DNA of 61,557 nucleotides, counting the filler, from Choristocarpus tenellus KU-1152 (taxonomy: Eukaryota > Protista > Phaeophyceae): NCBI GenBank assembly GCA_964200185.2. It is 13 parts of 13 records of this genome, joined end to end, with 100 filler letters (N's around TTAATTAATTAA, not from the genome) between each part and the next. Parts side by side here need not be neighbours in the genome. Positions count along the whole stretch, not along the records: positions 39,483 to 42,268 come from CAXNAD020024775.1; 12 more parts are not named here. The stretch is one strand, 5' to 3'. Shown here piece after piece: positions 3,441-56,900 of the stretch (position 1 is its first letter; the number at the start of each line of letters is the position of its first letter). The notes under the pieces were generated by a model that saw nothing but the letters and a program-made list of their open reading frames with translations, was not told the origin of the DNA and ran no database searches. The position numbers and the translations under genes are program-made.

Positions 3441-3810
3441 CTGCAAAGGTGGACATGAGAGAACAGAGTCAGGAGGCGTGTTTACTACTCGAAAGTGCAT
3501 TTTTTGTAGTAAGTTCATGAAATTATGTAAGATGAACCAAGCACCGCACAGTCAACAAGTGGTGAGAAGAGTCTGGCAGTGACAGCACACTTTCAACAGG
3601 AGGATCAGAAGTGCGCTGCAGGCACTGGTGTCAGCGAATGACAAAATTCAGCGATGTTCTCATCTACTAATATATATAAATATTAATTTGGGGTTGGCAA
3701 AATGAAGAAGCATCTTCAAAAACATCGCAAAATATTATCAAAATGTGCAGTTTCTTGCGCGGTAATAGGAAAGACCACGATGAACCCCTCTAAACTGACC
3801 GTATAGAGCT

Positions 3811-3950
3811 CAACATGTACACTTAAGGTCCAACATGTACACTTAAGGTCCAACATGTACACTTAAGGTCCAACATGTACACTTAAGGTCCAACATGTAC
3901 ACTTACGGTCCAACATGTACACTTAAGGTCCAGCATGTACACTTAAGGTC
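3811..3950. repeat. Minisatellite, 7 x 20 bp (caacatgtacacttaaggtc)
   Basis: Seven head-to-tail copies, two of them with single substitutions; no spacers. Confidence 0.95.
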
Positions 3951-6104: not shown

Positions 6105-6475
6105 TAGTTGTAACCTCAATACCTTCGCGCTGGAAAGTTTTGGGCGCCTCGGTAAGCAAGTGGAACGTTTCCTATATGAGCAAGCTACACACGCGTTAGA
6201 AAGGAGAGGAACTGGAGGCTACAGCAGATAAGGAGCCGTCAAATCCCGCCTATCTAGACGGTCCATGTGTTTTAAGCTGGAGTCACCAGGGAAATGGGCA
6301 AGGAGGGGTTTGTTAGATTCTTAGGATGTTCTAGCTCCTCACCTTGAGGTTGAGGAGTAGGTTTGAGACACAAGAAGGGCATAGTACGACATAGTAGTAA
6401 AATAGGATTTTGATATTTTTCACTTTTGTGACAACTGTTACCCCTTTACAGTTTTTTCAGACATGTTAATAGTTA
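6105..6475 (+). mobile_element. 3' end of RLE-type (CRE/R2-like) non-LTR retrotransposon, degenerate copy
   Basis: Homologous to 33048-33331 and to 7133-7380 (minus). Encodes ...LESFGRLGKQVERFLYEQATH..., followed by a 3' UTR matching the reverse complement of 6960-7035. Confidence 0.6.
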
Positions 6476-6907: not shown

Positions 6908-7380
6908 ATTATTATTTTGCTGTCTGACATTTTACAGATGTTTCAGGGGGGAAACCAATGAAAACTATTCACATGTGACTATAAACCCTAGAGAGGCAAA
7001 AATTGTCCCAAATGTGAAAAACACTAATCTATTTGTTATTTCACATTACCACTGACTTCCTGTGCCCCCAATCTACCTATTCCTGCACCCCACAGTGAGG
7101 AAGTAGGGAGGCATACCAATAATCCAACAAACTCCTCCTTGCCCATCTCCCTGGTGACTCCAGCTTAAAACGCATGACACGTCTAGACAGTGCCACCTAT
7201 GTTGTTTCTGAGACTATTTGACATAGGCGGGATTTGACCGCCCCTTTCCTCCTGTAGCCTCCAGTTCCTCTCCCCCCCACCATGTGTGTAGCTAGCTCAT
7301 CCAGGAAAAGGTCTAGACAGTGCCACCTACGTTGTTACTGAGACTATTTGACATAGGCGGGATTTGACCGCCCCTTTCCT
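6908..7380 (-). mobile_element. 3' end of the RLE-type non-LTR element (coding end + 3' UTR + tail), with an internal direct repeat (130-bp period)
   Basis: 7133-7380 is the reverse complement of the RLE-coding segment at 33110-33320. 7181-7250 is repeated at 7311-7380. Tail is ...aaaataataat. Confidence 0.6.
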
Positions 7381-12259: not shown

Positions 12260-15200
12260 ATGCTTGAGTGGCGATGGCGAAGGGGATGGATCCCTATCCT
12301 TCAACTTACTCTCCTAGTCCTCGACGCTAGCAGTAACTGCGTTGAACCCGAGGGGAACTCGTGTGTGTCCCACACCCCTGTAGGCGATGCTCAAATATCA
12401 CTCGGGGTTTACTATGATAAAGAAGCTTGCGGCTCTGCTGAGGAACCAAGGGATGACCCTGAAATTGGCTGCAATGGTAAGATTGATTGCGCCTGGAGTT
12501 GCTTGTTTCTCGTAGAATGCCCTGGTCGTCACCTCTATATGATCGCGAACTAGATAATCACAATTACTACTTCATGTAATATCCTGGCGTTCCTATCATG
12601 GCGATCACCAACTAATTTACCATGTGGCCTGACACTCACGAGAGAATTTGAAGGTAGCGCAGTTGGGTCGATCTTGTGTAGATATCGCCACTCTTCAACG
12701 TCGTACTTGCATGGTTACAATCTACACTTCGCCCAACCTGCTCACTCCATACAGTTGATGAAGAGGCTGCATGCAGACTGTGCGTCATTGGGGGTAGGTC
12801 AGCAATCTTGCCAGAGTGCCCTACGTGCGTGTTAGAATACATCGAGGAAACACTATATACTCCAGCACCTGGAACAACACTAGCCCCTGGAGTGACCCTC
12901 ACCCCTGCCGCGACACCATCACCTGGTGCTACATTGGGGCCGGCTACAACCCCTGGATCCTCCTTGACCTCGTTTCCTGGATCAACACAGTCGCCAGCTG
13001 CGACAAACGCGCCATCCATGACACCAGCCCCAGGACGGACTCAGGCACCTGCTACAACGCTTGCACCAGGGGTGACACTAGCTCCAGGAGCCACCTTGCC
13101 CCCTCAAAAGACACTAGCGCCTGCGGAGACGTTAGCACCAATGACAACATTGCCTCCGGGAGAAACGATGGCACCAGCGCCAGTTGGACCGTTGATAACA
13201 CCTTCCCCAGCAGCAACGCTGACCCCACACACAACTAAAGCACCTGAGGCCACTCCATCGCCGGGGGTAACCTTTGCACCGGGAGCAACACCGTCGCCAG
13301 CGGAAACGCCTAGGCCTATGGCCACCCTGCCGCCTGGAATTACACAGGGGCCAGCATCAACCCTTCCACCCGTGGAGACTCAGGCACCTGGTGGAACATT
13401 AGCGCCAGGAACAACCTTAGCGCCAACGGTGACACTGGCGCCAGGGGAAACAATTTCGCCTGTTGTGACCGTTCCCCCTGGTGCAACATTGGCACCAGCA
13501 ACAACTCTTGCACCTGTTGTAACCCTGGCTCCTACCGCGATGTTGCCACCCGGGGCGACACTGTCACCTGGAACAACATTGGCGCCGGGGGTGACACAAT
13601 CTCCTGGGGGAACACTGTCTCCAGGAGCAACGCTCGCACCAGTGATGGCAACACTAGCGCCAATGGTGACATTACCACCAGGAGAAACACTGGCTCCAGG
13701 GGCAACGCTTGCACCGGGGGAGACCCTAGCTCCTGGTATGACACTTGCACCCATGGCAACAGAGGCACCAGGGGTGACGTTGGCACCAGGTGTGACAATT
13801 GCACCACAGACAACCCCTGCACCAAATGAGACCCTGCCTCCTGGTGCAACATTGGCGCCGGGGGCAACATTGGTTCCGACGGAAACACTAGCACCAAGAG
13901 TGACACAGGCACCGGGGGTGGCGATGGCTCCAGGAACAACACTTGCACCGGGGGCAACACTTGCACCAGCTATGACATTGGCGCCAGGGATGACGCCAGG
14001 ACCCATAGCAACACTTGCACCAGGAGCAACACTTGCACCAGCTACGACAATGGCGCCGGGGATGACGCCAGGACCCATAGGAACACTTGCACCAGGGGTG
14101 ACGCTAGCACCAGGGTGGACGCTGGCTCCAGGGGCGACACCTGCACCTGGGGTGACTCTGGCTCCAGGTGTGACATTGGCACCAGGGATGACGCTGGCCC
14201 CAGGGGCAACATTAGCACCGGGGGTGACTCTGGCACCTGGGGCAACATTGGCACCGGGGGAAACACTTGTGCCTTGGGAGACCCTGGCTCCTGGAGTGAC
14301 CTTATCACCGGGGACAACACTGGCACCTGGTACTCTTGTGCCGTCAGGATCCCCAACTGCAGCATTGAGCCGTGCCGGGCTCTCAGGGTCACTGACGTTC
14401 TTCTCACCAGATAATCCCCCGTGCTTGGAGACTAGAACATGTAACAGTGTGTTCACGGATGCTCTAGGGGATGCAATCGGGGATAATGACTCCACCTCTG
14501 TTGTGTTGTCATCATTGACTATTGGTTCAGAGAGCATCAGTACAGAGGACAGGAGGAGACTCAGAGTTAGCCACCACAGCCTAAGGGGAGGAAGGGTGCT
14601 TCAGAGCAATGGGGTGTCCTCCACTGTTGTCTTTGAGATTCAGGATCTCAACTCAACAGATTCTCCATCAGGTAATATCTCCCTTTTCCTATGTGTGTTT
14701 CAACAATCCCTATTCATCATGCAAGTTGTCTCCTTGAAGAAAATAATGTCTAAAGAAAATATTGTTCATGTTCTCAAATCTTCCCCTCCTCTCCACGTAA
14801 TGGGAAGGGGGATGGAGATTTCTAAGATGCTGAGTAGACATAGCGTTTATACACCTGCTCCATCCCTCCCTTGCCCCTTTTGAAGGCCAACATTTCGTGT
14901 CCTTAGAGTAACAGTATTAAGGTCGGTCTTGAGAGCGTGTACTCATGTGTGTGTCCACTTGCTTTGCTCTCATCCTCGATCTCCTCCCTCTATTCTACTT
15001 TGTTCATATTATGTTCCATATTTGAAGGTGATGCTGCAGCAAGGATAAGAGCCTTAGAGGAGGGTGGCCTGGCGGGCATGCCCAAGAGCCTGGGTATGGA
15101 TGAGACATCAACTATTGTGTCGATTACAAACCTTCAGTATGAAACGTGTGAGTGTTTTACCATCAACACCTTGAGCATGTGGATGGCTAGCTGTACATAT

Positions 15201-18200: not shown

Positions 18201-20914
18201 TATTCGGCGCTCAGCACAATCACCAGAAATAGGCCACTTGTCACAGGGAGATGTGGAGGGTAAAAAAACTGAAAAGGTGGAGGAGGGTGATGCTGGGGCG
18301 GGGGGGAGCGGTCAGGGTAACACCAGGAGTCAACCATCAACCATCTCTAGGGAGGAATCTGCAGCAGCCAAAGCGATTGCAGACTATGTGGTTGGTCACG
18401 GGACTGTTGAAGGCGAATACAAAGGTGACTTCAAGGATGGGCGAGTTATGGTGGAGTTGGGGAAGGCTGCGGGAGATTCCTCAGATGAAAGCTTGCCGAG
18501 CAAGGATAGTGAGGAGGCTGAGAAAGAGCTGGAGAGGGCGGCAATTGATTTCCAGGATGCGATTGCTGAGACGGAGACAGTGAACTTTGAGGTTAGGGGG
18601 GTGGCAAAAGAGAGACTCGGGAGGGCATGAGATAAAAGTGCAGGGGCATTTTTTATTCAGAAGAAGAGTGATATATTGATAGGTGATGAGGATCATTTTT
18701 ATTTATTTATGATTATTGAGGTATTCTGTTATCATATTTTATTCGTCCCTCCACATTTCTTTCGTCCTCATCATCCCCGCCATCAATCACTCTTCTCCCT
18801 CTGGCCCGTCCTTCTAGGCTGTTGACCGCCATTTCCGCAACCTGGATCAGACGAATAAGGGCCAGAGCTCATCATCTACCCGCTATGACGACTCCCAGAG
18901 CGAGTCCTCAGGATTTTCGGCATACCTTACCTCACAGTCAAGCATATCATCCACTAATTTCTCCTTTCCTGCTGCAGCAACAACGGGCACATCCTCCTCA
19001 TCTGCTGGCACATTCTCTTCCTCACATCAGGGGGGAGGGGAAGCAAACTCTCATTCACCATCCCTAGTCAAGTCTTTGGAGGACTCAAAGGAGGGTGATG
19101 AGGGAAGAAGGGCTGCAAGAGGTGATGCAAGTGCCATTGCTACAGGTGGGTTGTAGGTGTAGCTAGAGGATATCATTAACTTTGGTGGTGAAATAGTGTT
19201 AAGAGGGGATGGGGAGAAATGTGATTGTGATAAGAGTGGAGTACTGTACACTGTGGAATATTGCGGAATGAGCACAAGCAGTTTTCATGCTCAGATTATC
19301 CAGTCATTGCCTTAACTTTGTCCCACCCTCTCTCCACGACAAGCCATCTCTTGTTGCACCACATAGTATTACCGTGCCCCAACCTTGCCATGACTCTTCA
19401 ATTCTCTGCCCTCTGCTTTTTTTGTGCAAGGTGCAGCAGCATTCATGGCTGGGGCAGCAGCAGCCACGGAGGCTCAATGTGGTGAAGGCAAGGTTGAACC
19501 AGTGGAGAAGTCACAGGAACCACCACAAGAGGAGCAGCCCCAAGACCAGTTGGAGGAGCAACAGCAAATGCAGGAGTCACAGCAGCGGGCAATTTCTCCC
19601 TCAAGCATAACAACTGAGGATGAGCTTACAGGGCTCACATCCGTCGACACTCCCCCAACCATAACTCCGCCCACAAGTGCCCGGGTGCCCAACTTGACCA
19701 ACATTTTGGTCAGTGAGACACCCTCATCTGACAACGTTAGTGAGGAGTATATGACTCTATCCCCTTCCCCTCCCCATCGCCGGGTTCCCTCTGTTCTCAC
19801 CCGTGTGGAAGAGGCATCGATGGAGGAGAGTGAGGGTTGGCCCTCCCCTGCTACCACTTCAGCCCTTGGCGTTGGTGGTGATGGTAATGACATGACGTTG
19901 AGCCCTGGCTCAGTTTCATCTTCTGCAGTGCCAACCGTAGTTGACAATGGGGCAAAGACCTTGATAGGGGAAGGTTTGACAGAGACAGGGTCTGGGACTG
20001 GAGTTGGAGGACCTTTGGGGGAAGGGGCAAGGACTTTTGAGGAGGTAAAGAGTGAGAGCAGTGCTGTACCCACAACAGTCTCAGCAGTCACTTCGGCGGC
20101 GGACGAGACATCTTCGACAGTGACAGAACGAGGTGTGGGAGGTAGTCAACCCTCATCACGATGGACTCCATGGCCACAGCTTCTTCGGTGGGGGAGTTCG
20201 GCTTCCACAATACCACCTTCTGCGCACTCAGGGAACAGGCCAATGTCTACTTCGATCATTGTGCCTTCACCAGATACCATGGGAGGATCTGTAATGTTCA
20301 GCGGTTCTGGTGATATGACAGAGTTGGGTTATGGGAGCAGTAACAGCGTATATGGGGGGAGTAGTAGTCTTGGTGGGGGAGGGGCTGGTGGAGTCGCTAG
20401 AGGAGAGGACAGCAGTGTGACCCCCACCAGGAACCCAGGGTATCCTGCGGGACTAGGTGGGCCTGAGGGTACCATGAGCACGCTCTCCTCCACTGCAGGA
20501 GGTGGATCATTCTTTGAGATTAGTCCAAGGGTAGTAGATCGACAAAAGAGAGGACACCGTCGAGGTAGCAATGAAGTCGATCGAGTCGACCGAGGCATGC
20601 AAAGGACTGGCAGGGAAGGAGAAGGAAAGGCAGTGCCGTCAGAGGTCAGGCTAGAGCCCATGGTTGCAGTAGAGCCTGTGGGTGCATCGCTGGTAGAAGA
20701 TGCCAAGGGGTTGGAAAGTGAGGTTGCAGGTGCAATGCAGGAAAAAGCGTCTCTTGCATCTACAGAGCCACTGGAGCAGTCCAGAGCACCTACCACAGTG
20801 TTAGGGGCAAGGGTGGAGGCTATAAGAGAGGCGAAGCAGGCGAGGGAGGCAAAAGGACAGTCTCAGACGGGAACTGGGGCAGACGCACATCATGGGACGA
20901 AAAGGTTACAATAA
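12260..20914 (+). CDS. Mucin-like type-I transmembrane protein, complete 10-exon model, ~1,723 aa
   Basis: Exons 12260-12476, 12755-14671, 15028-15147, 15915-16015, 16231-16407, 16766-16850, 17463-17777, 18164-18591, 18818-19145 and 19431-20914. All introns are GT-AG, phases are consistent, total 5172 nt. Layout: signal-peptide-like N-terminus, Cys-rich module, ~500 aa of TLAPGx repeats, TM helix (AWFGIILAILSIAVVLMMVVILCLV), then a long S/G/E-rich tail. Confidence 0.8.
12860..14345 (+). repeat. Coding 18-nt tandem repeat array encoding (T-L-A-P-G-x)n
   Basis: Dozens of hexapeptide units (TLAPGA/V/M/E/T) with heavily varied synonymous positions. Confidence 0.95.
16868..17110. mobile_element. 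MITE, family with AGCCATCCTATCT terminal inverted repeats (intronic)
   Basis: agccatcctatcttagagggggg ... ccctcttttagataggatggct; a related element lies at 22194-22459. Confidence 0.7.
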
Positions 20915-26123: not shown

Positions 26124-26277
26124 NNNNNNNNNNNNNNNNNNNNNNNNNNNNNNNNNNNNNNNNNNNNTTAATTAATTAANNNNNNNNNNNNNNNNNNNNN
26201 NNNNNNNNNNNNNNNNNNNNNNNCTTATTCAAAATCGCAGCATTTGATTTTGCCCCAAATACACTACAAACGACAGA

Positions 26278-26548
26278 GAGCCAAAGTATCTTAGAGGGTA
26301 GAGTCGCGTCCGTTGGGGAGCCCAAATCCAACATATAGTTTTGGACATAGTTTTGGTCATCTTGTTTGTTATGAAGTATCAATGTCCATGTTCTGGACAC
26401 AGATTTCCATAATAATAATATTTACATTTTACTCACTACTACTTCAAAACGTTTTCGAGGAACTAGATGTCAAAACAAAACCCACCGGAACATAAGCCTC
26501 AAATTGAGAAACAGAACAAATCTCGTACCCTCTAAGAAACTTTGGCTC
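26278..26548. mobile_element. MITE (271 bp), TIR GAGCCAAAGTATCTTAGAGGGTA, AGA target-site duplication
   Basis: TIRs of ~23 bp with one mismatch and AGA on both sides. Homologous to 49243-49509 and 36673-36755. Confidence 0.85.
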
Positions 26549-26690: not shown

Positions 26691-26860
26691 AGGGTTTAAA
26701 TAAACCCTAATCAGCCTCTTTACGGGTCTCAAACGTTTCTATCTATTCCAGAAACGTTTGAGCCGCTTCTTTATGCTACATATGGTTTAAATAAACCCTA
26801 ACACGAAACTTTAGTGGTTTAGGGTTTATTTAAACTATATGCAGCATAAAGAAGCGACTC
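26691..26860. repeat. Cluster of three inverted repeats/hairpins
   Basis: agggttta..taaaccct (26691-26708); perfect 13-bp arms 26728-26740/26750-26762; 42-bp arms 26760-26801/26819-26860 with 3 mismatches. Confidence 0.9.
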
Positions 26861-27872
26861 TATCATATTCCTTGTACGCAATTATGAATTATTGGCATAG
26901 AACACTCAGAACATATGCAGTAGGGTTTCTCCACGAGTAGAATGGTAGTCTAATCCTTACACCAACAAATACAGATACAAACCACATTCTTTATTGATCT
27001 CATAAATTCAAAACGTGATAGTAGGCCGAAAGGGTCACGAACACACAGACACCCTCTGTCTCGGTTCAATATAAAATCCTATTCTTTTTGGTATTGGTAT
27101 TTTTGTTACGCGTATCTCGTAAAAAAATTGCAATCTGAGTTATAGGATCGAAAGGTCAGACCACATACAACAGCACCTACCATCTCTCAGTCCTCATTTC
27201 AATTCATTACCTTGCGTAGATACCAAGCAGACCTCTTACTTACCCATCCCCATCAGACTAACCCAATATTTTCCATGTCCAACATTTCAAGAACAACAAC
27301 CCACCCGCCCGCCGATGGGAAAGGTTTGGAACCCAGAGGCCAGGACCGTCGCCAAACAAGCATGTCCAGCATACTGGATTAACACTATATAGGTTCATAC
27401 AGGATGAAACTTCGCCATATCACATGCACGGATATGGTTTGTCCGTTAAGCGGGTGTGGCCTTCAGCGCGTGAGGAAGTCTATAGAGGAGAAAGGGTGGC
27501 TGATTAGCTTGCTCCAAGTGTTGTCATCCAGCGAGAAGTTTAGGTAATACGGATGAGCTAAACCCCGAAACAGCGCTCACCATTGAAGGGCGAGTATTGG
27601 ACAGAAACCATAGAGTAACAGTGCTGAAGAATATGTTTGATCCCGAGAGCTCTTTCACCATGCGGATCTACATAGAGTTCGACCAAACTGAAGAGAGACT
27701 GATTGCCAACGGTGGGTGACAGATTGTTTTCGTTGTTCCATAATCGCCTGATGGCTATTATGATATATGAAGCTGTTGTCGAGTTTGCCTTGCTATGTGC
27801 ATTGACAGTAAGTCCGTTGTGGTCCTTTTCTTTGCTCATCATCTTTATCCATCGTGGTATTCCTGTCCACAG

Positions 27873-29188
27873 CAACATGTTTCTCGATGTCGCAGGCCGC
27901 GTGTGTCCCGTGATCGCCCCCCACCTAACACTTGTCCCGTTCGCCCACTGCACCGTTATGCTTATAGCATTCAACGAAGCGACAGAGAGTGTGGTTGAGC
28001 GCACGTTATACGATGAGATATATTTTCAGCACAAGCTTCAAGAAGCTATGAAGCGACAGAGGGAGAAGAAAGACGTGTCAATCGCAGATATCCACAAAAT
28101 GTACCAGCAGGTGAGATGATTGTCGACATTGGTGGGATTGTCGTGCTCTATTCCTATATTTTTCACTTTTCCCATGTTGTTCAATGTCCTTCGTGCTTTC
28201 CACTTCCTTTTGTATCGCTTGCTCTCTCCCCCCAGCAAATACGTACTTGTCTGTTTCATTGTCCATTTTCGCGCATGATTGTGTTTCTCGTCTTCACTAC
28301 ATTATTTTTCCATACTTTCTCCGATTATTACTTTATATCCTATTGTTTGCAATTTTTAAATTGATTATTTGCCTTGCGTTCCACACTCTTTATACTAGTA
28401 TAACGTTAGTGGTGCGAGATTTCATGAATCCCTACCATGACTACTTGTGTGATGTCACTGTCAAGTTCGACACATGTCCGCCCCACTCACTCCCTCCCGC
28501 ATTCTCTTCATTCAGAGGCTCTTACTGCGTCAAAGGTGGGCTTGTCATTAGAGGATCATCCCCTAATGCTAGTGTACAAGACGAGGAGGGGGGGGCGCCC
28601 TCAATTAGGCACAGACAACCATCTCAAAGTCACCAGGACATGATTTGTCTTGCCCATAACGACGGGCTGCAGTTCACATGCAATAAGCGAGTCACCGTCG
28701 ACGACATCTTTGGCCACGGACGTGAAACGTCTCCTGTTCCACGCCATGATGGATGTCGAATACGAAGGTGCTGCCTCGGACATCCCCATGAGGGCCCTCA
28801 ACTTCCTTGTTAACAGGTTCGTCTATGACGTCACACATATCCTTCTTCACAGAAGCAGCGATTTATTTTTTTTGTAGAAGGTATAGGACATCGTTAAACA
28901 GTATCAGAACGATCTGGGTGACGGTTCAGGAGCGTCATTCCATACCACGAGTTTATTTCCCGAATCGGTACGTTAAGCGTGGCAACACACAAAGAGCGTG
29001 TTGCCCTGTATCAGAAGGTACTGCATAAACTGCGAAATGATGAATCCGTGCGCTATACAATTACCACATTAGGGCTAATTTACGAACTGCCCTCCCACGC
29101 TAGGTACACGAATGCTGGGGACACCATCGTCTCCTACAGCGCAGAGAGGCACAATGTGGTGGAGGCAACCCTTGAACGGAGCAGGAGG
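27873..29188 (+). pseudogene. Second, rearranged copy of the beta-class DNA methyltransferase-like gene
   Basis: From ~28141 it aligns, introns included, with 40625-39575 (minus). Exon 28516-28816 carries two frameshifts and a stop. Exon 29104-29188 reads tag|G-YTNAGDTIVSYSAERHNVVEATLERSRR. A different upstream exon lies at 27873-28110. Confidence 0.7.
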
Positions 29189-33047: not shown

Positions 33048-33331
33048 TAGTTACAACCTCAACACCTTCACGGTGGAAAGTTTTGGGCGCCCCGGTAAGC
33101 AAGCGGAACTTTTCCTGCATGAGCTAGCTACACACGCGGCAGGGGGGAAAGGAACCGGACACTACAGGAGAAAAAAAGGAGCCGTCAAATCCCACCTACG
33201 TCAGATAGTATCAGTCACAACGCAAGTAGCCTTATCTAGACGGGTCATGCGTTTTAAGCTGGAGTCACTAGGGAGATGGGCAAGGAGGGGTTTGATAGAT
33301 TCTTGGGATGCTTCCCTAGCTCCTCACCCTG
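33048..33331 (+). mobile_element. 3' coding end of RLE-type non-LTR retrotransposon (best-preserved copy)
   Basis: LNTFTVESFGRPGKQAELFLHELATHAAGG...LRQIVSVTTQVALSRRV resembles the C-terminal restriction-like endonuclease segment (F-x-V-E-x-x-G-x-x-G...FL..LA...S...Q) of CRE/R2-type elements. Three copies are in the window. Confidence 0.65.
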
Positions 33332-36672: not shown

Positions 36673-36755
36673 ATAGTCAAAATTACATCAAAATCACAAC
36701 ATCGTATTTTGATCCCCAAATGGACGTGGCTCTACCTTCTAAGATACTTTGGGTC
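36673..36755. mobile_element. MITE right end (TAGAGGG subfamily) at contig start
   Basis: tggacgtggctctaccttctaagatactttgggtc matches 49475-49509. Confidence 0.75.
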
Positions 36756-39485
36756 TGTACCTCTTTCTCTACCTCGGATATGAGATTGCGATTGAGTTTG
36801 GTGGAAAGTCGAGGATGATGGGTTGGAGGCGTGTGGCTTCAAATAAGTGTTGTATGTTGACAGCCGCAAGTGTTGCCATACTTTATCGTACGGTAAAGTA
36901 TGGCAAAACAATGACATGAGGCGTGTGACTTGAAAAAAGTTGGTAAATGGACCGCCGCAACTTTCGCTACACTTTGTCGTAGGACAAAGCAACAGAAGGA
37001 ATGATTGACTCCCTCCCTCAGCATCTAGAAGGCATGGAATCGAAGCAAAATTATCTCAGAGAAACCCCTATCCCTTCACCAATTCATATTCAAGGTTTGA
37101 TATGTCAATTGTATAGAGCTCTAGGCATTCATACTGCCGGATATTGGAGGACATGAACTTCGTCGTTAGATTTCGTTCTGCTCTTGATGGGAGATTGTGT
37201 GCGTCACCCGTTCAGATCTACGGTGGAACTGGTGAACACCACGCCTCTCTGATTTCGATGCAAATGTGTGATTTCGGAAGGATATGGTGACCATATTCTT
37301 CGCTATGCCTAGTCTTCAAGCGCTAATCCCTCTTTCAGGTAATTACAGAACGCACAGGCTACATTGGAGTATGTTTTGCTGCGATGGAGGCCTGGTCTTG
37401 CCTTTGGGACGTCCTGTGGTCTCCTCCTCCGGAGTCCATGAGTTCATTCCCGTTGTTAGCCAGATCCCCTAGTGGCTGACCGGTCGTCATCGTACATCTG
37501 CGGTGCGATGGGTGTTGTCCTCTCGAAGAACTGCGACAACGATTCCTCTATATTGTCCAGGCCCGTTGGTTTGATGTCGAAAGAGTGAGGGGGTGTGGGA
37601 TTTGTCGCATATGTGGTTTGGCGAAAGTTTTTTTGTTTTGCACTATAATATAATTCAACAAAACCGCAAATATATGAAAAAAAAAATGCAAACTATTCAT
37701 ATTTATGTCTCTATTTATTCTACTAGTTCAACGCCGTCGTAGACATAGATAGAAATTTCAATACATCTGTGAAGAGAGCAAAATACGTCTTATTATATCT
37801 CCTTTTTGATTCCCGAGGAAAAGGAACACCCCAACTAGCCTATTCATAACCACAATATATATACTACTATTTAATAGGGGTACAACATTCAGTAAAGGCG
37901 GTTCTTTTATTGATCATCGTGAAATTGTTAACAACCGAAAAAAAAAGTTGAAAAGACTATACTTTCTTGGTGAAGAGAGGATAGGTGCGTATCCAGTCCA
38001 TGAGAATCGGGCTCGTCTGTGGCTATCCCTGTGCGCTGTACGTAACGCTAAACACCGGCATGTCGGAAGGTAAAAAGACGACAGGACTTCCTCTTAATGA
38101 AAGGTGATCAGGTGCGTACGGCTCGAGGATGATGTGAACCGACCACGACATGGCATCCTATCTGGGCCTGACTCGATGCGCAAAACATTTTCTCTCTCTC
38201 TCCTTCTGTTTGTTTATCCTGTCCCATATTTCCAATGTGCCCACCCGATGCAGACATCCCGCGATCAACTGAGAGGCTTAGTCCAACCACCGAACGCCGC
38301 CATGCTTCCAAAGGGAACCAGAAGGTGAGTCCCCATAAAAGAAAAGTTCACAACATACACTGGAGCGTTTCTGAATGACCAATACCGCAAACACACCATC
38401 ATATTTAGCGCCTTTGGCGGATGTTGCGGCTTTCGTCCGTTCACGTACATGAATAGCATATGGCTGACATGATGGTGTAGCCAAGCGGTTGTATGACCCC
38501 CTAGTCACGGCTCCTAACCCAAACATTGTCGAATAGTGTGCCGAACTGAATGCGCCCATCTGGGGTTGAGCCTTCCTCGTCTATTGGCCGTTCGCGATGT
38601 GTAACGTATCCCGCCAATTCCTTTGTACACGTTCCTCTCGATACTAAGTTCCAACATGCCATGTATTCGGCTTTTGCCAACGCACAAACATGCCCCTTCC
38701 ATTAGGAATGATCTCGCTATTGCTTTCTTAATGTATAGCACAAATCCGGGTTAGGTCCAGATGACGTCGCTGTTCACCACTGCACAAATTACCTTGGGAG
38801 GTAATGGTATTTCTCATTAGTGAAGATAAGAGGGTGTGAAGCCTCACACGACCCCTTTGCTGAATGTGAAAAAGAATGGATGGTTGAAATTATCAGAGTG
38901 ACCTTTGTGGGGTCTCTTCTCATTGCTTGTTTTATTATTATTTGTGCTTCCTACCTAAGTCCACAATTGAATCAAAGTAGTTGAATGCATAATAATAACC
39001 AATACATAATCCCATACATAATCCGGATGTACTATCTCATTAGTTACATCACGTGGACTCAATTCAACACACAATAATCTCATATACACAAAATGAGATC
39101 CACCTCACTATTATCCTATTTTGCACACTCCCCCATGAGAGTGCAGGCAATGAAGAGTTGCTGGAACTCTCAAACCAAAAACATCTTACTGTGCATGTTA
39201 AGTTGTCTTTGACGATCTGTTGTCCCACATAACTAGTTATATTATTGTTTATTAACTTGTACCACAGTTGAGAAGAGAGTGAGATACCTTCACTAGGTGG
39301 GGCTCACCAGTCCTTACACTTAATGACTCAGAATACCAAATGACTCAACGTATCTCTAGTACACGTCAGAAACACTCCGACTNNNNNNNNNNNNNNNNNN
39401 NNNNNNNNNNNNNNNNNNNNNNNNNNTTAATTAATTAANNNNNNNNNNNNNNNNNNNNNNNNNNNNNNNNNNNNNNNNNNNNCTT

Positions 39486-42268
39486 TCACTTGCCGTCCTT
39501 GTAGGCTTGGCCGAAGGACGTGTCCATCTTCTCTTTCACCTCGTCCTTTGACGCCGCATTGGACACGAACACCTCCACCCTCCTGCTCCGTTCAAGGGCC
39601 GCCTCCACCACATTGTGCCTCTCTGCGCTGTAGGAGACGACGGTGTCCCCAGCATTCGTGTACTTATCATAGGAGGGCAATTCGTCAATTATCCCTATGG
39701 AGTATATTGTATTGCGCACGGATTCATCATGTCGCAATGTATTAGTAACGTTCCGATACAGGGCAACACACAGTTGGTGCGTTTTGATGCTTAACATACC
39801 GATTCAGGAAACAAACTCGTGGGATGGATTGACGCCCCTGAACCGTCACCCAGCTCGTTCTGTTACTGTTTAACGATGTCCTACACCTATACAAAAAAAA
39901 CGCTGCTTCTGTGAAGAAGGATGTGCGTGACGTTATTAACGAACCTGTTAACGAGGAAGTGGACGGCCCTCATGGGGATGTCCGAGGCAGCACCTTTGTA
40001 TTCGACGTCCAACATGGTTTGGAGTACCGGAGAAGATGCATCACGCCCGTGGCCAAAGATGTCATCGACGGTGACTCGCTTATTGCATGTGAATGTTGTC
40101 CCATCGTTGTGCGCAAGAAGAATCATGTCCTGACGACATCTGAGATGGTTATTTGTGCCTAATTGAGGGCGCCTCCCCCCCCTCGTCTTGTATATTAGGG
40201 TTAGGGGATGATCCTCCACAATCAAGCCCACCTTCGACGCAGTAAGAGCCTCTGAATCAAGAGAAGGCGGGAGCGAGCGCGTGGGTCCGGCATGCGTCAA
40301 ACTTGACAGTGACATCACACAAGTAGTTATCGTAGGGATTCATGAAATCTCATACCACTAACATTATAATAGTACAATGAGTGTGGAACGCAAGGCAAAT
40401 AACCAATGCAAAAAATGCAAACAATAGGAGATTAAGTAATAATAGAAGTAAATATGGCAAAAAAGTGTAGTGAAGACGAGTAACGTCAGCATGCGATTCG
40501 CGGACAATGAAACAAAGAAGTATGTAGTTGCCGGGGGGAAAGAGCAAGCGACACAAAAGGAAGTAGAAGGTACGAAGGACATGAAACAACATGGGGAACG
40601 TGAAAAATATAGGAATACACACGACCTAATCCGCATCTCCTGAATGATCGCACAGTATTCGATCGACACAAGGACGGAATGATAACGGCCATGGTGGATT
40701 GCAATAGTCTCCCGCAATATACCCCGTATTTCAGCGCTGGTACACTCTGCACCTCACCATGTAGGCGGTGTGCTTGCGCGGCCCACGGGTGGGGCACAAA
40801 TAGCGCGATGGTGCCCTGAGGATGCATCTTAGGCCGCAAGCACTGAAGCATCTCGCGCAGGTGTGTGTTGGTCGCCTCTTCGTCGATGAGGAGTCTTGGC
40901 TCGACGGCAATGGACACTATCACGAGCTTTGGCGAGTTGTGGAAGGCGAAATCACCAAGTTTGTCTACGGATATCGTGGGGTCAAGAGGGCGAAGGTCGT
41001 GTAGTGCAGTGTTCTCACTCCTGGTTGGACATCATGACACATGACACAGTAGAAAGACAGCCCGACAAGAAGGGCGGCATAGTCAGCTACGGTGTAGGCA
41101 ATCTTTTCATTAAGTGAGTTCCTGACGATATTTCCACGGCATCTCCAAAATGTCAGGCCGTACCCTCCACAATGCCAGACTCATCAGATACATCTCGTGG
41201 AAGGAGGGTAGACTTCAAAACACTAAGTTCCATGACCCATGGAACCCTCCAAAAAAGTGACACATCCAAGGTACAGAGGACGAGCAATCCACATGATGTA
41301 CAAGCAGCCAAGACCTATGTGCAAACCAACGCGAAAACAAACCTGCAGAGACGACTTGTGTGTCTGTATAATGTGCAACCACGCTGAGACCCAAATGCAC
41401 TTCTCCATATCGGCCGTTTCGCTGCGTGAGGGGGGACGTAAAAGGCTTTGCGTCGTGGGTGTCCCGCCCGCGCTCCTTGCGCGAGCCTTACCCTTGCCCT
41501 TGCCCCTGCCCCGACCCGCCGCTTCGTTCCCCACCGATCCAGACCCTTCACTGCCCTCCTGTGCCATGGGGCAATTGATACATGATCGATCCTTGTGCCT
41601 CTCGTCGCCTACAATCTCCACGTATGCACATTCGCCCATATGCGTGATAGAGCACTGTGGGCATGTATACCTGTCACGTGTGTCATCGAACGAGAGCGCT
41701 AAACAGATAGGATAGTATTTTTCGAAATCATTAATTGGGCGCAACAATGCAACGCGGGGATCCACGGTTATGAAGGACCACGAAATTGGCAGTGCAAAAC
41801 AGCACAAAGTAGTACAGGTGATATACAACAGTCGGTGATGTACATGCATTAACACACAAGTGGAAAGTGGCAATAAAGAGATGTGGGGGTAGCGACCGCC
41901 GCGTTGCACACAGAGGGACCCCGCAGCATTCCACCGGTTCAATGGCGTGCGCCGCTGAAAAGATACAACATATCTATCCGTTCGGGGGATTCGATGGAAA
42001 CCAATCTTACGCAATTAATTACACTCCGCCCTACATGTGCACCGTTACAACTACATTACTCACCGAGACGTAGGTGGAGGATTGCATTCAGTACAGCAAA
42101 CGCCCGCGTTCCACCCTCCCTCTTCGTTTTGTTCTTCTTCTGCACCAGGAACACTGCCGACAGAACCCCCTTCGCCCGTATCCTCCCTGTCTGGCAGTCC
42201 GTACCCTCCCTCGTCTTCTTTCTCACGGTCTCCTGATGCCGATTCGTTCTTGCTCTCAACTTCTGCGC
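39486..42268 (-). pseudogene. Intron-containing gene for PHD-like zinc finger + beta-class N6A/N4C DNA methyltransferase-like (N6_N4_Mtase fold) protein; 5' part missing; probably pseudogenised
   Basis: Exons 42268-42064 and 41670-41343 join in phase to give CTEC-x9-CPQC-x3-H-x3-C-x15-CINC. Exons 41020-40758, 40251-39945 and 39663-39486 join in phase to give a ~250-aa MTase-like domain (...LRPKMHPQGTIALFV...DIPMRAVHFLVNRYTNAGDTVVSYSAERHNVVEAALERSRRVEVFV...). The last acceptor is TAA instead of TAG, and the 41343-41020 junction is not phase-matched. Confidence 0.7.
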
Positions 42269-48700: not shown

Positions 48701-51700
48701 CTTCGCAGCGGCAGGTGAACATGGGATATGGCGATATACACCAAGACCCGAGTCTCTCTCTCTATATATATATATATGAAACAATGGATCCAATACAATG
48801 TTCTTGTACTGTGGATATTTTGAGAATAAGTGTGGTTTTTTTCGGGGTTGAGCAGGATCAATTTATTTATCAGTTAGGATCAGGGTTGGTGCAATTTGTT
48901 GCTTCCAATGCCTCTTTAGAAATCCATGTGCTCTTTCTGATATCCCTAACTCCACCCCTATCCCTTTGCTTCAAGGCGTGTGTCATGAAGGATCCTCTAC
49001 ATGCTTATGTATTATAATTTCTAGTATATACAGTAGCTATAATAAGTACTGGAGAGAATACATATTGGTGTATGTTCTGCTTGTTTGTGTGAATCACTCT
49101 ATCATGTATTTTCTATAGACATGCCTTAAAAAATTGTACCATGTACTGTCCATACTTACATGCACATGTCTTCAGGCATTTTCTCTACAGAAGATACCAA
49201 TCAATCAAAGTGGTCCACGTTTGTAATCATCTTGAGGTATAAGAGTGAAAGTATCTTAGAGGGTACGAGTTTTGTCCTATTTGTCCATTTGGAGGTTTGC
49301 TTCTCACGGATTTTTTTTGATGACAATTCCTATTCCGAAATATATGAGAGTAGATAAAATGTATACAGTATTGAGCAGGTATCATGCATATGTCCGGAAC
49401 AAGGACATTGACACTTCCTAACAAATACGTAGCCAATATTACATTAAAATCACATTTGATTTTGGTCCCCCAAGTGGACGTGGCTCTACCCTCTAAGATA
49501 CTTTGGCTCATAAACTGTATATGCACTTTAACAGTAGATACAGTGCATGTACACACCGGAAGTGTTTGAATTATATTCTAGTGTTCTCTGCGCTTGAGCT
49601 CTTGGGAAGTTGCCTGGAATCAACACAATACCAAGTATGTGCCTTATCTGTATCTTAGTACTTTCCTCGTGAATCACCTTCCCCCCCTGCCCCCACTATT
49701 CTTCCCCTTGTGTTTTGTACTGATGGTATGCTCTTGATGATTGGTACTACTATATAGGGTGCCATTTTGTCATTGTGCCTCTCTTTTCATTGCTACACTT
49801 AAGCACTGAACCGATATCCCACACTCTGACCTTCTATTTTGAAATCTCTCTATATTCCTTTCCCCCCCCCCCCAGAAAATTAAACACTACTATATGTTGC
49901 TATGTAGTACTTATGATGCTACACATTTGACCTAACATTTGGTTCATTTTATTAATTCTATGACAAATATTTGTGTATGTATTTGTTTTATTTCACTTTT
50001 TCGTGCTATGTACATGGTGTATGACTCCATCCATGTATATTTTCTTTTTATATTTGGATTGCTTGCTACCAAAAGATTGATGTACTTGCATGTAGCTGCA
50101 GGTTGAACAAAAAATCTTGTGTGAGCAATGCATAGGATTTCATGTTCAAGATCCCACAGGAGTGAACCAGGCATTTCCAACATGGAATACATTGCCCATT
50201 TATTGACGTAGGAAATACTATTAATATGTGACTGTTTTGCTCCGTGTGTTAGTGGAGCTCTATCTATTATATAGAGCGTGTCCTTAACCTTAGTCCTAAA
50301 CCATTTCAGTATGTCACCATGCTGTCGGGTGGTTGTTGCTAATTTCTTCACTGTTTCCATTGCTGTTCTGGTGGTGCTACAGAGCTTGGACAATGTGTGC
50401 TGTGGTGTGACACATGCCTCCTTCTTGGAGGGGGGAAAGATGATGGTCATCGGTCATGGCGATTGCACCGTCAAGGTGTGATAGGGCGATGTTGGATGAA
50501 CCCCAAACCCACCACATACATATAGAGGGCACACTACATGTCTGTATCTATGCGCTGAAGGATACTTTCATTTGAACCAATGAATGTACCCTCTTCTAGA
50601 GATGTTATATTGAATAATCTTTTCGTCTTACCTAAGCAACCTTCCATACTAAATCCTGCACCCACCACAAACTCTTCTTCCTAATGACTCCTTGTATACG
50701 CCTCCCAACACCAGGTGTACTCTTGCCAAACAGGCGATGTATTGGCCTCCTACCCTACAACAGCACCCCCTGTCCTTGTGGCCTCAGTCTCCACTTCTGG
50801 TGGGCAATCCATACTTCTTGCAGTTGCCGGAGGTGTGCTGGTCAGATGGCCGCTGCACAAGGGGGGTCTGCGGCTACCAGGCTCAATCGGAGCTTCAGGT
50901 GAAGGCTCCAGAGCCAGCTCTGTTGCAGGATTGGGTGCCAGGTGCATCAACAGCAGCGTTTTGGATCTTGTGGGTTCTGTGAGAGCTGTGGTAGCCTTGC
51001 CTTTGACCTGGACTTCTTCATTGTCCTCAGCACAGTCATTATTGGAGGGGGGGCGGGGGGGGGCGGGGGGGCAAGGAGAATCTGTTGTGGTGGCAGGGGA
51101 GAGGGGTCTGGTGGCCTTGGATGCTGCGAGTGGGGATGTTGTTTCAGAAATGGGGTTGGGGGGCCATGTGGGGGGAGTTTCATGTTTGGCGATACTTCCG
51201 GATGGAAGTGGTCTGGTTACAGCAGGAGAGGTAAGAGGACAGGGGACGGGGTAGGAAGTCTCTGAAAGAGGGCATAGGAGTATGTTAATTTGTGGCAGAG
51301 GGTGTTTGTTGTATTTTATTGATTGCTTCGTTTTGCTCATCATGTCCAATACTCTGACTTTTTATTATTGCAGGGTAAGGGTTAGGTAGGTGCACGTGCA
51401 TTAAAGCTTCAACTACTAAAATGCATCATGCTGAATCTGATATTTCTTTGAAATAAGTTGTTTTTGTTGACATAACAGGAGTGGGTGTTTTTTTCCAGTA
51501 ACGATACTTCCATACAATGCAGGGTGGGCTTGTTATGTCATGTTGTTGCGGACTGTTTGACAAATTGAGACCTTGGGCCACTTTCCCCGTATGTTTTGAC
51601 CTAAGTATGTTTTGACCTAAATTGTTGTGTGAAGACCTTTTGTCATTAGATAGTAAGAAGAGAGGTGGTGATACAGTTCTCGTTTGTATAATATTGACTG

Positions 51701-53921: not shown

Positions 53922-56900
53922 GTGAGTCTGACCCCGTTAGTTGTGACGGGGGTCACTTCAGGCATGTATGGGCGTGCTTGTGTGCTTGTGGGTGACTCCA
54001 AGGGGCGTCCCTTGCCCGCCCATCGTATGGGCGCTGGTGACGAAGTCAGGTTACATAGCACCAAGGGCAAGGGAGGGGAGACAGAAATAACGGATATCAC
54101 TGGTAAGTCGGATGAGCGGAGGGTCGCTTTCTAGTTTCATCCATTGCAGGTATTGCAGAGTTTGAGTGTTCGGAAATTCAAAATCCGAAAAGTCAGTTTG
54201 TGGTCTCTGCCAGCCTGAATGATATATGGACCATCCTCCACATCCTCTCGTTATATATATTGGTGCGTGTAAGAGACTAGATTCATGTTGGCCGGCTTTC
54301 CTTCTCACAATGGCTAAGGCGCCCCATCTACGCTACGCTAATGTACTGACGTATGGTCTGCCCTACTTGCATATCTGTAAGTCGAATTGATTATGGAACC
54401 TTACCGATCCTACCCCCTCTCCCCCGCTGGTGCTCTGGAAAAGTGTAGGAGTGGTTGGCAAGATGACTGAACAAACTGTGGAGATAGTTAGCGATGATGC
54501 AGACGATGCTGGTGCCCTACGAGCTCCTTTGCGCCTAGATGTGGTTGCCAGCGAAGCCACTCATAAAAAGCTTATGCAGGTGCCCTCCCAGCAGGCTCGT
54601 AATCTGCTACACCAATCACCCACTACTAAGACTGAAGTCATGCAGGGGTGGAGTCAGAGGGAAAGATTTTTGATTGCTTTATTAGGAGGGCATATTAAAG
54701 GATTGAAGACAACCACTACAAGAATACTGAGATAGCTCAACCCAACATGAGAGTGTTGTGTGTATAGAATTTTAATCCAAATTGGCATTTTATCCACCAG
54801 AACTGTATTGAATTTTGTCTCATTGTTTTAGCCCCTTCACTTCGCACCTTTTCATCTATGCACTGCATATGCAAAGATGGAAGGGATTTTTTCCACTTTT
54901 CCTCACATTCTCATGCCACACATCGGTACACCCTCCCACCAACCACCATAAGGTGTGAGTTGGGAGTACATCACACCAACATCTAATTTCACTGCTGAGA
55001 ACCCATGAATCCATTTCGCATCACAGTAACTCTTAAAGTTTCCTTCGGTGTAACCATCAGGGTCTAGATGCCCTGGAGACCTACCCAGCTGGAGGGCCTG
55101 CGGAACGTGTGAGAAACGTCCTCTTTGGCTTGGAACCACACAGCCTACCAATGCCACCTACACTAATGGACCTGGGGAATATGCCAGGGCCAAAATCATC
55201 AGGACTGGGTCAAGGACTTGCTGCATCACCAGCACTGACTCCTTCACCTCCAGAAGCCGTTATCAATTCTGCCCTCAATGATTCTCAACGTGCCGCAGTG
55301 GCCTTTGCACTAGAGTCCCCAGAGGTGGCACTAATACACGGCCCTCCAGGTACTGGGAAAACCACAGCCGTGGTGGAACTGGTGCTACGAGCAGTTGCTT
55401 GGGGCCAGCGATGTCTTGTGTGCGCCCCATCAAATGTGGCAGTTGATGGTGTGCTGGAGAGACTGGTTGCCATGGGAGGAGCAGGACTGGAAAAGGGGCA
55501 TGGGGCAAGGCCACCTCGTGTTGTTCGTCTTGGGCACCCAGCCAGGTTACTGCCAAAGGTGAATATTTTTGTGGTTTTTGTAACTTGGGGCAGTGGGACT
55601 GTCCTATCTGTATGTGTTCTGTAAGCAAGGCATCTATTGGTGAGAGCTCTCTGGTTCCAATGGCAATCCCATACCTCTAAGGGAAAGTGTAAGCTAGGGG
55701 TGTGTGCCACCCACATGTGATACCACAAACACACAGATTCACGTCCATCATCTTCGCCCTCCTCCCTCCCCTGATTTGTATTGTCTTGACTACTCTCCGA
55801 AGGTTCTTGAACACTCGATGGAAGCCCTTGTTGCGTCCCATGATGGCACTGCCATTGTGCGCGATATCCACAAGGAGATCAGCACCCTGGTTGGTCGACT
55901 TCGCAGAGGGAGGGAAGGAAAGGAAGTTGGCAAAGGAAGGCCAGGAAGGGCAGAACAGGCGGGCTGCAGAAGAGAGTTCAGGAAGGAGGTGGGGGTTGCA
56001 GTGATAGGAGCACCAACCAAAGTTTGATGGGGAGGGGAAGGCAGATTTCAGCTGCGGATATGTAGACTTAAGGAGTGGACCTCTGAGCAACATCTGCACT
56101 GCACCATGTGCTTCTTGGTTGTGTGTATTGTGAAGGATGTTGCAGGTATTATCATGGCTTTGAACCTCTCCATGCACTTATTTTACATTCTAATCTCTAC
56201 ATGACTGGTCAAGTGGTGAACACTAGTGCAAACGGGGTGAACGAATTGATCGATACCAATTTTTTTAATTGCTGAAGAACAGACCAGGATCCGCAGGAGT
56301 GCCGTTGATAGTTTTTGAAGCATATATCCGGTCAACGATGGGGGGGGACTCTTAGATGGTGGAACCAGTGTATCTAGGGGCGTATCGTTGACTGTGTGTG
56401 TGTTTTGTGTGTTTGTGTGTATTTTATTTGCAGTTACGTGCTTGATAGTACATTTACCTGGTACTGCTGTACAATAAAACGCCTCTCCTGATTCTAATTA
56501 AGCTCCTGACTCTGCTCCTAGCCCCCCATGGTAAGGGTTGCTACTGTTACTCCATTAGAGTCACACATGTTGTCTTAGGATTAGGTTTAAGCTTGACATG
56601 TTCTTTATGTTACACTCTGGCACCAAATTCTTGTCTGCACATGAGTTGGCGACTACGATTCCACCAACTCGAACTCTATGCCTTCATATTTCCTGCACAA
56701 TCAGTACTACCAGGCTTAACCCCTCCACTCCCCTCCCATAAACTTTCCAGTTCCCATTGTCCCCCCCCCCCCTACACACAAAAAGACCACTGATGTGTAT
56801 GTACGGGTTTGTCAAATGCGAACTGTTTTGCACACAAAGATCAAAGCCCTTCGAAAGGACGCCCGTAAACGAGAGGAGAAGGTGGTTAAGGAAGTGCTTC

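Follow-up and report, generated by a model that had tools for sequence, protein, structure and literature searches.

A many-copy, intron-containing gene of brown algae with a probably ParB-like region, a Cys/His finger and a predicted methyltransferase fold that lacks enzyme motifs

Described ParB and methyltransferase fusions and the Choristocarpus gene

According to the published view, algal transposons with ParB and amino-methyltransferase genes may methylate their own DNA (PMC12477816). The nearest described system is Sola1-1_Ec32, a 21.5-kb Ectocarpus transposon carrying a gene for a 1104-amino-acid (aa) protein with ParB-like and N4/N6 methyltransferase parts, for which self-modification was proposed (PMC12477816). 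In the Plavaka elements of red algae, the accessory gene PAG2 combines a PF01555 methylase with SET, and PAG3 combines a ParB-like part with a modifying domain, an oxygenase (bioRxiv 10.1101/2025.02.11.637652). Here we describe a gene of comparable layout in a window of 61,557 nucleotides (nt) from Choristocarpus tenellus, made of 13 contigs joined by identical 100-base spacers. The gene copy studied, copy A, is an entire contig of 2.8 kb (39483-42268), and because this contig sits between artificial spacers its neighbors in the window are not known to be neighbors in the genome. Copy A represents the 3' portion of a single dead copy of a brown-algal gene that has introns and exists in many copies. 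The gene product probably serves a giant DNA transposon as an accessory protein that binds DNA and chromatin and has no catalytic role. This reading is based on the observed gene structure and copy decay, on the domain order of homologs and on the loss of enzyme motifs, combined with a predicted fold.

Like the Sola1-1_Ec32 gene, this family is brown-algal and multi-copy and pairs a ParB-like part with an N4/N6 methyltransferase-type domain, a likeness of description and not of compared sequences; the length of the Sola1-1_Ec32 protein is close to the ~1170 aa summed from two models of this family, P0047 and P0049. In contrast, methylation was predicted for the Ectocarpus protein and the main text of that paper has no mention of PHD, whereas here the enzyme motifs are lost and a finger is present in one subfamily. 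A table in the same paper gives the gene as Ectocarpus specific, while homologs of the present family occur in four genera (PMC12477816). The Plavaka genes resemble this family in being giant-transposon cargo with methylase-chromatin and ParB-modifier fusions, but there ParB and methylase are on separate genes and PAG2 matches the PF01555 profile, which this family does not (bioRxiv 10.1101/2025.02.11.637652). The layout is likely that of a transposon ParB-methyltransferase accessory protein, a kind already published in Ectocarpus; new here are the motif loss, the finger and the spread over four genera. We found no earlier report of the motif loss or the finger in a mainly open literature that excluded the 2011 review behind the green-algal examples of PMC12477816.

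Host-encoded and phage systems offer further comparisons. The bdelloid N4CMT likewise has a bacterial beta-class fold, intronized and fused to a small chromatin-type domain, and is among the structural matches described below (Z 13.5); however, it is a host gene with an intact SPPY, proven activity and a chromodomain reader (PMC8885841). In the classification of Iyer, Zhang and Aravind, methyltransferases of the basal-fungal clade 4 are fused to PHD and other readers and include an additional domain that is inactive, inactive methyltransferase domains also occur in DIRS1 elements, and clade 6 and the chlorophyte Dams derive from phage ParB-terminase loci (PMC4738411). Clades 4-6 differ from this family in being unpermuted, and the clade descriptions of that work include no permuted, motif-less, ParB-fused brown-algal family (PMC4738411). 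Phage fusions of ParB_N and N6_N4_Mtase share the domain order of this family and are its top structure matches in Atlas and BFVD, but they keep the catalytic motif IV and the S-adenosylmethionine (SAM) motif I (both in 15 of 16 open reading frames, ORFs), they lack introns, a long linker and a finger, and their sequence-profile similarity to the family is not significant. As for the hosts, a survey of brown algae reports only DNMT2-like DNA methyltransferases, the loss of PRC2, and N4-methylcytosine and N6-methyladenine (4mC/6mA) measured in an outgroup only (PMC13076208), and DNMT1 has been reported in Discosporangium (bioRxiv 10.1101/2024.02.19.579948).

Gene structure, homologs and copies

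Four public runs (X1-X4), all from one study, were aligned to the copy A contig; joints were drawn from the best 15 of 21 joint rows, and differences from 40 of 593 and 40 of 107 difference rows. We take X4 to be RNA from its joints and from its depth, which is several-fold higher over exons than over introns. Five minus-strand exons lie at about the places proposed by the initial annotation (Table 1). When joined at the family splice positions they give 408 codons with no internal stop, and the resulting protein is 60% identical over 325 columns to the Scytosiphon model P0049 (tblastn), which covers the second half of exon 2 through exon 5.

Table 1. Parts of the two gene copies in the window, in gene order
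Feature	Positions	Strand	Description
Copy A, exon 1 to contig limit	42064..42266	-	acidic linker rich in Gly; first Cys pair of the finger
Copy A, intron 1	41671..42063	-	393 nt, GT-AG, phase 2, intact
Copy A, exon 2	41395..41670	-	remainder of the C4-H-C3-like finger, a basic linker rich in Lys/Gly, beginning of the methyltransferase-like domain
Copy A, intron 2	41021..41394	-	374 nt, phase 2, donor TT here (dead)
Copy A, exon 3	40758..41020	-	N-terminal part of the predicted beta-class fold: eroded motif IV, MHPxGTIAL strand
Copy A, intron 3	40252..40757	-	506 nt, GT-AG, phase 1, intact
Copy A, exon 4	39945..40251	-	strongest conservation in the family, in columns of Glu, Tyr, Gly-Gly, His, Asn, Asp, Gly, Pro and Arg
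Copy A, intron 4	39664..39944	-	281 nt, phase 2, acceptor AA here (dead)
Copy A, exon 5	39486..39663	-	TNxGDTV strand, eroded motif I with Glu for the invariant Gly, last strand and helix
Copy B, ParB-like exons	27314..28113	+	tblastn with P0048, three pieces of 56-71% identity, E 6e-34 and 8e-17
Copy B, continued	28135..29188	+	from the end of intron 3 through exon 4 and intron 4 into the start of exon 5; frameshifts

All four introns were seen as joints in run X4, and none of the four in X1-X3 among the joint rows listed. Intron 1 was skipped (393 nt) in two X4 contigs; the 374-nt skip of intron 2 came from two joint rows with one contig each, with short sides of 21 and 26-28 nt; three joint rows correspond to a net skip of 506 nt at intron 3; and the 281-nt skip of intron 4 was found in five contigs. 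Three of the four junctions had been claimed to be in phase, but only introns 1 and 3 are both intact (GT-AG) and in phase here. The junction between NR and YT, one of those claimed, fails in copy A, where AA stands in place of the family acceptor AG at 39665-39664; essentially all aligned depth (24, 24, 7 and 4 contigs in the four runs) disagrees with the window at base 39664, as does copy B. The junction that had been left open (41343 to 41020) is settled by the X4 joints, which place the second donor at 41394, in phase 2, fitting the acceptor before 41020. The Choristocarpus model P0001 and P0049 are spliced at this position, and P0048, also from Choristocarpus, reads through the donor with a codon that requires GT; an intact 41394 donor in other copies is indicated by the joints and P0048, the position being absent among the difference rows listed. 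A donor near 41343 was rejected, as its phase 0 conflicts with the phase 2 acceptor and nearly all aligned depth has other bases than the window at 41343-41344. Copy A is not canonically spliceable at introns 2 and 4 and is a dead copy. X4 also has joints of 559, 624, 408, 212, 161 and 47 nt that match none of these introns, and protein P0046 passes from exon 3 into exon 4 in another frame; other copies, deletions or alternative splicing may account for these.

The closest named proteins are gene models from Choristocarpus tenellus (74-93% identity over exon pieces), Ectocarpus sp. CCAP 1310/34, Undaria and Scytosiphon, and as judged from these models the gene family is present in four brown-algal genera. 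A search with exon 4 (E<=0.001 among 1.84 billion representatives) gave 44 matches, of which 43 were retained; P0015, a 5477-aa repeat protein, was dropped as a false match caused by its repeats. Seven of the 44 were looked up, and four of these are named brown-algal gene models. The models overlap along the gene: Undaria P0047 holds the ParB-like region and ends in exon 1, P0048 runs from the N-terminus through exon 2, P0002 connects the N-terminus with the finger and exon 3, P0001 joins the finger to exon 3, and P0049 extends from the end of the finger through exon 5. Exon 1 matches the C-terminus of P0047 and part of P0048 (tblastn), exon 2 aligns with P0001, P0002, P0048 and P0049, and exon 3 is 63-74% identical to P0001 and P0002. 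The proposed fusion of the finger and the methyltransferase fold in one frame is therefore supported by the X4 joints and by P0001, P0002 and P0049. At the 3' end, the TGA stop of copy A (39488-39486) is replaced by Trp in P0049, which runs on for 265 residues, while the Ectocarpus model P0050 ends a few residues beyond the position of the stop. The C-terminal extension of P0049 (residues 330-590) has no match in the window and low model confidence, and a profile search for family proteins of 451-2000 aa returned P0049 only, which is weak evidence of absence. In 19 of 54 collected proteins, the end coincides precisely with the exon 4 boundary.

The contig stops at 42268 and exons upstream of exon 1 lie outside it. 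The homologs extend the gene upstream by a probably ParB-like N-terminal region, which the initial annotation had missed and which tblastn with P0048 locates in copy B as well. Atlas gave this region feature scores of 0.91-0.93 and template modeling (TM) scores of 0.44-0.53, 8 of 10 structure rows list ParB_N (PF02195), and there are weak matches to KorB and to the helix-turn-helix of regulators (E 0.04). The ParB_N signature is Gly-x-x-Arg, and a G-N-H-R signature is found in three of the four models that cover the ParB-like part. With moderate support, the N-terminal region is likely ParB-like with a helix-turn-helix.

That the element is multi-copy, as first proposed, is borne out by many diverged contigs and by the second copy within the window. 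The numbers of contigs aligning to the 2.8-kb contig were 2738 in X1 and 2356 in X2, with all identity bands from <90% to >99% filled, an alignment depth that is not itself a copy number. Two gene copies, A and B, are found among the 13 contigs of the window, and the four Choristocarpus gene models of the family sit on separate short contigs. Many dispersed, partly decayed copies are thus present, as for a giant-transposon accessory gene. The ParB-like exons of copy B are decayed, with a stop and a frame break, and its continuation is 85% identical to 40632-39579 of copy A over 1068 columns, introns included. An internal deletion in copy B, from the N-terminal exons to intron 3, links the two ends of the gene on one contig.

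Between copies A and B, exons have changed less than introns, with differences at 40 of 385 exon positions and 94 of 660 intron positions. The exon changes comprise 17 synonymous and 23 non-synonymous ones, with 17 of 40 above the 24-29% expected (p 0.007-0.043), and the ratio of non-synonymous to synonymous rates (dN/dS) is ~0.42-0.55. In exon 4, 21 columns are conserved at >=70% against a median pairwise identity of 33%. Taken together with the 60% identity of the window and Scytosiphon proteins, these sequence comparisons indicate that the family is kept by selection, and copies A and B look like decayed descendants of a selected, mobile gene.

A palindrome at 26760-26860 (42-base arms 93% complementary, 17-base loop) precedes the ParB-like exons of copy B by ~450 bases. 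Inverted repeats adjoin ParB-like accessory genes in red-algal Plavaka (bioRxiv 10.1101/2025.02.11.637652), and the palindrome could equally be a small foldback element. In addition, a short dispersed repeat occurs on three contigs (26277-26355, 36678-36756 and 49456-49509), and sequence resembling it forms loose ends inside intron 2 of other gene copies, which suggests a small element inserted in intron 2 of those copies.

The methyltransferase-like domain and the finger

An intronized beta-class amino-methyltransferase fold had been proposed from the sequence alone. Its introns are seen both as X4 joints and in the gene models, and the fold of the family is predicted from structure and profile-profile matches to M.MboIIA, CcrM and YhdJ-like enzymes. 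The P0049 model matched M1.HpyAVI in Foldseek (E 3.2e-7) and gave a VIA Z of 14.4 to M.MboIIA and a Z of 14.3 to CcrM, each with 192 aligned and a root-mean-square deviation of 3.4 A; N4CMT was also matched (Z 13.5), and the METTL3/MTA1 rows were lower, at Z<=10.4. For an Atlas model, all 10 structure rows were PF01555 clusters, at TM scores of 0.71-0.74, and three of them were ParB_N fusions; the modeled domain of P0049 has the seven strands and permuted order of such folds. Nine family sequences were compared with 59 YhdJ-like enzymes (76 ORFs matched, of which the 59 unique and domain-covering were kept). The profile-profile match reached 92.6%, against 0.85% for the best of 20 shuffles, and the colinear alignment of 217 columns preserves the proposed order of motif IV region, target-recognition region and motif I region; the flank of motif I scored 15.4 bits against a reference median of 18.3. 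The suggested scan against PF01555 gave no match with plain Pfam; the matches came from the profile-profile comparison with YhdJ-like enzymes and from the structural searches. Sequence searches of PDB with P0049, the exon-4 profile, the ParB-region profile and a finger half returned nothing significant.

Beta-class enzymes require (D/N/S)PP(Y/F/W) and FxGxG (PMC7544214). Motif IV, (D/N/S)-P-P-(Y/F/W), is absent anywhere in the nine family sequences and present in 57 of the 59 references; FxGxG of motif I is likewise found in 0 of 9 and in 58 of 59, and six family sequences cover each place. The best scores of the window protein were 5.8 bits for motif IV and -3.6 bits for motif I, compared with reference minima of 19.9 and 20.6. 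The Gly of motif I, 100% conserved in the 59 references, is Glu in all six covering sequences, from two subfamilies, and the acidic residue at the end of beta2, which binds the SAM ribose, is Val in all four that cover it. This Val stands at the place of E216 of M1.HpyAVI, in which D29A and E216A abolish SAM binding (PMC5173035), and swapping SPPY to APPA removes the activity of N4CMT (PMC8885841). The structural alignments begin 10-12 residues before CcrM Asp31 and M1.HpyAVI D29; if they are extended without gaps, the catalytic place is P0049 106-108, with Ser/Asn followed by small or aliphatic residues. The hhalign register prefers an upstream L-D-P, where an intact motif IV is absent too.

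The subfamily of P0017 and P0050, ~32% identical to the window protein, shows the same motif losses, and the losses are therefore old and not a product of decay in the window copy. Since three defining features fail (motif IV, motif I and the ribose-binding acid), the family does not belong to the active beta-class group, and since motifs IV and I are missing in all nine sequences examined, the epigenetic writer of the initial annotation is not supported. The domain is most likely a pseudoenzyme that would bind DNA and not methylate it. Selection still acts on a protein that has lost its enzyme motifs in two deep subfamilies, and this suggests a binding role. Exon 4 is likely the DNA-contacting loop and target-recognition region, with the register taken from the profile alignment to beta-class loops. 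In the alignment, its Gly/Arg-rich stretch falls on the loop that separates the two strands following the first helix pair and, by way of YhdJ, would be equivalent to Loop-45 of CcrM, which enters DNA (PMC6787082).

A complete C4HC3 finger had also been described. The eight ligands in C4-H-C3 order are indeed present in the joined window protein (Cys 58, 61, 71, 74, His 78, Cys 82, 98, 101), but their spacing is not that of PHD. The PHD pattern has His-x2-Cys, and its second residue ahead of the last Cys pair is hydrophobic; the window protein and P0002 have His-x3-Cys, and that second residue is Arg in 4 of 4 sequences. The finger halves are conserved in P0047, P0002, P0001 and P0049, with ligands kept in the four genera wherever covered. 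Separate halves (single exons, P0002) gave no PHD match by profile or structure, the finger being complete only across the intron. In the P0017/P0050 subfamily there is no Cys in the 200 residues before the methyltransferase domain, which means that the finger was gained or lost in one branch. We regard it as a putative chromatin or protein contact, for which neither PHD identity nor histone reading is supported by the spacing.

Candidate functions and other features of the window

In the mechanism that we favor, the ancestor would have been a phage-type fusion of ParB and methyltransferase whose chemistry was lost and whose DNA-contacting loop region was kept. The ParB-like part with its helix-turn-helix would bind sites within its own element, the disarmed methyltransferase would grip DNA in the way that dimeric beta-class enzymes do, and a further contact, with chromatin or protein, would come from the finger, an addition of one subfamily. 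Overall, expression or transposition of the element would be helped, with no writing of 4mC/6mA. Carriage by a transposon, DNA binding and a benefit to the element would all be part of this proposal. The top viral structure match is a 494-aa phage protein named ParB/Sulfiredoxin, and 16 phage ParB ORFs have a downstream motif IV.

Several points weigh against this proposal. The ParB profile test failed to confirm the ParB-like reading, with 5.5% for the family against 3.2% for 30 shuffles, and the model of the ParB region is poor, with a predicted local distance difference test (pLDDT) of 42. The P0049 model has a mean pLDDT of 51 (~60-85 within the domain), and the PF01555 profile is unmatched by P0049 (E<=1) and P0050 (E<=0.01), both of which hold the whole domain. 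PF01555, PHD and ParB_N were unmatched in Pfam, PHROGs and PDB sequence searches of single exons or homologs. The family profile matches phage ParB-fused methyltransferases at only 1.7%, so that sequence does not demonstrate a phage ParB-methyltransferase ancestry. At the motif IV place the first residue is still Ser/Asn, and an upstream Asp is retained, which leaves room for a remnant pocket. Within the 2.8-kb contig no transposase, terminal repeat or target duplication is linked to the gene; X4 has no RNA label on its record, and the four runs represent a single study. Any benefit to the transposon is something that we infer.

If this family is the same as that of the Sola1-1_Ec32 gene, the published prediction of self-methylation is probably wrong, and the binding role changes which experiment is worthwhile. 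Additionally, so diverse a family escapes Pfam, and brown-algal transposon control is poorly understood. A bolder version, in which a selfish chromatin factor from a phage ParB-methyltransferase acts as a ParB-type clamp with a rebuilt Glu pocket and either binds the element and shields it from silencing or writes a non-methyl mark, with a new kind of zinc finger in one branch, is doubtful; if true, it would represent an element-specific anti-silencing system in a lineage reported to lack 5-methylcytosine and PRC2.

Among the rivals to a non-catalytic transposon protein, the one that survives best, though still unlikely, is that the gene is no transposon cargo at all, and belongs to a host multigene family or is an endogenous giant-virus gene that was intronized and amplified. 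Many Phaeovirus insertions are known in brown algae, some with intron-containing genes (PMC11890097), Pandoravirus methyltransferases are among the viral structure matches, and the contig has no linked transposase. However, close-match scans found no relative in 2.9 million viral contigs, the gene has four introns, with the exon 4 boundary apparently kept in position across diverged members, and thousands of diverged contigs with frameshifted and internally deleted copies are transposon-like. A related-locus scan of metagenome contigs found no related locus, and when 50,697 phage records were searched by tblastn, the best E values were 2 for P0049 and 8 for P0048.

Next in standing, and also unlikely, is a re-purposed enzyme, in which a rebuilt pocket with the invariant Glu and a ParB/sulfiredoxin-like domain would perform a non-methyl reaction on DNA or a nucleotide. 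The Glu in both subfamilies at a place of universal Gly in the references, the invariant His (43/43), Glu (36/36) and Pro (40/40) of exon 4, and the G-N-H-R signature speak for this idea. Yet no result points to any ligand or reaction, a DNA-binding or dimer surface explains conserved polar residues equally well, and a Glu in the SAM loop may merely fill the pocket.

Slightly less probable again, and likewise unlikely, is a silent partner like METTL14 or MTA9, a dead domain that would provide the DNA recognition for an active methyltransferase partner whose gene lies elsewhere. Beta-class dimers with divided labor are known, and motif IV is eroded in METTL14 and MTA9 (PMC7544214), but we found no active paralogue among the 43 exon-4 matches or the full-length models (most matches miss the motif places), and the survey cited above lists only DNMT2-like DNA methyltransferases in brown algae (PMC13076208).

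An active, chromatin-guided amino-methyltransferase, with the finger reading histone tails and the domain writing 4mC/6mA in the manner of N4CMT and its chromodomain, is very unlikely: the beta-class fold and order of motif regions, the match to N4CMT (Z 13.5), the Ser/Asn at the first motif IV place and the methylation predicted for the Ectocarpus protein (PMC12477816) speak for it, but PP(Y/F/W), FxGxG and the ribose-binding acid are replaced in every covering sequence, the finger has non-PHD spacing, and in P0017/P0050 the 200 residues preceding the domain are free of Cys.

The remainder of the window holds several features apart from the gene. On the minus strand, two frames at 1992-3551 correspond to the N- and C-terminal domains of a copper type II ascorbate-dependent monooxygenase (E 2.4e-9 and 1e-14), and a 36-base repeat lies within this region at 2157-2286. 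The plus-strand frame at 12682-14883 (733 aa) consists of 6-residue Thr/Leu/Ala/Pro/Gly repeats encoded by an 18-base unit and looks like a cell-surface repeat protein, its only Pfam match being Hexapep (E 3.8e-10). Also on the plus strand are an exon-sized frame at 55037-55624 that matches AAA_11, a piece of a superfamily 1 helicase (E 7.8e-26), and a 506-aa open frame at 19394-20914 with no Pfam match at E<=1. Finally, a dispersed repeat family (6105-6328, 7095-7313 and 33048-33327) occurs on two contigs in direct and inverted orientation at 81-91% identity, and seven near-perfect tandem copies of a 20-base unit lie near a contig end at 3811-3950.

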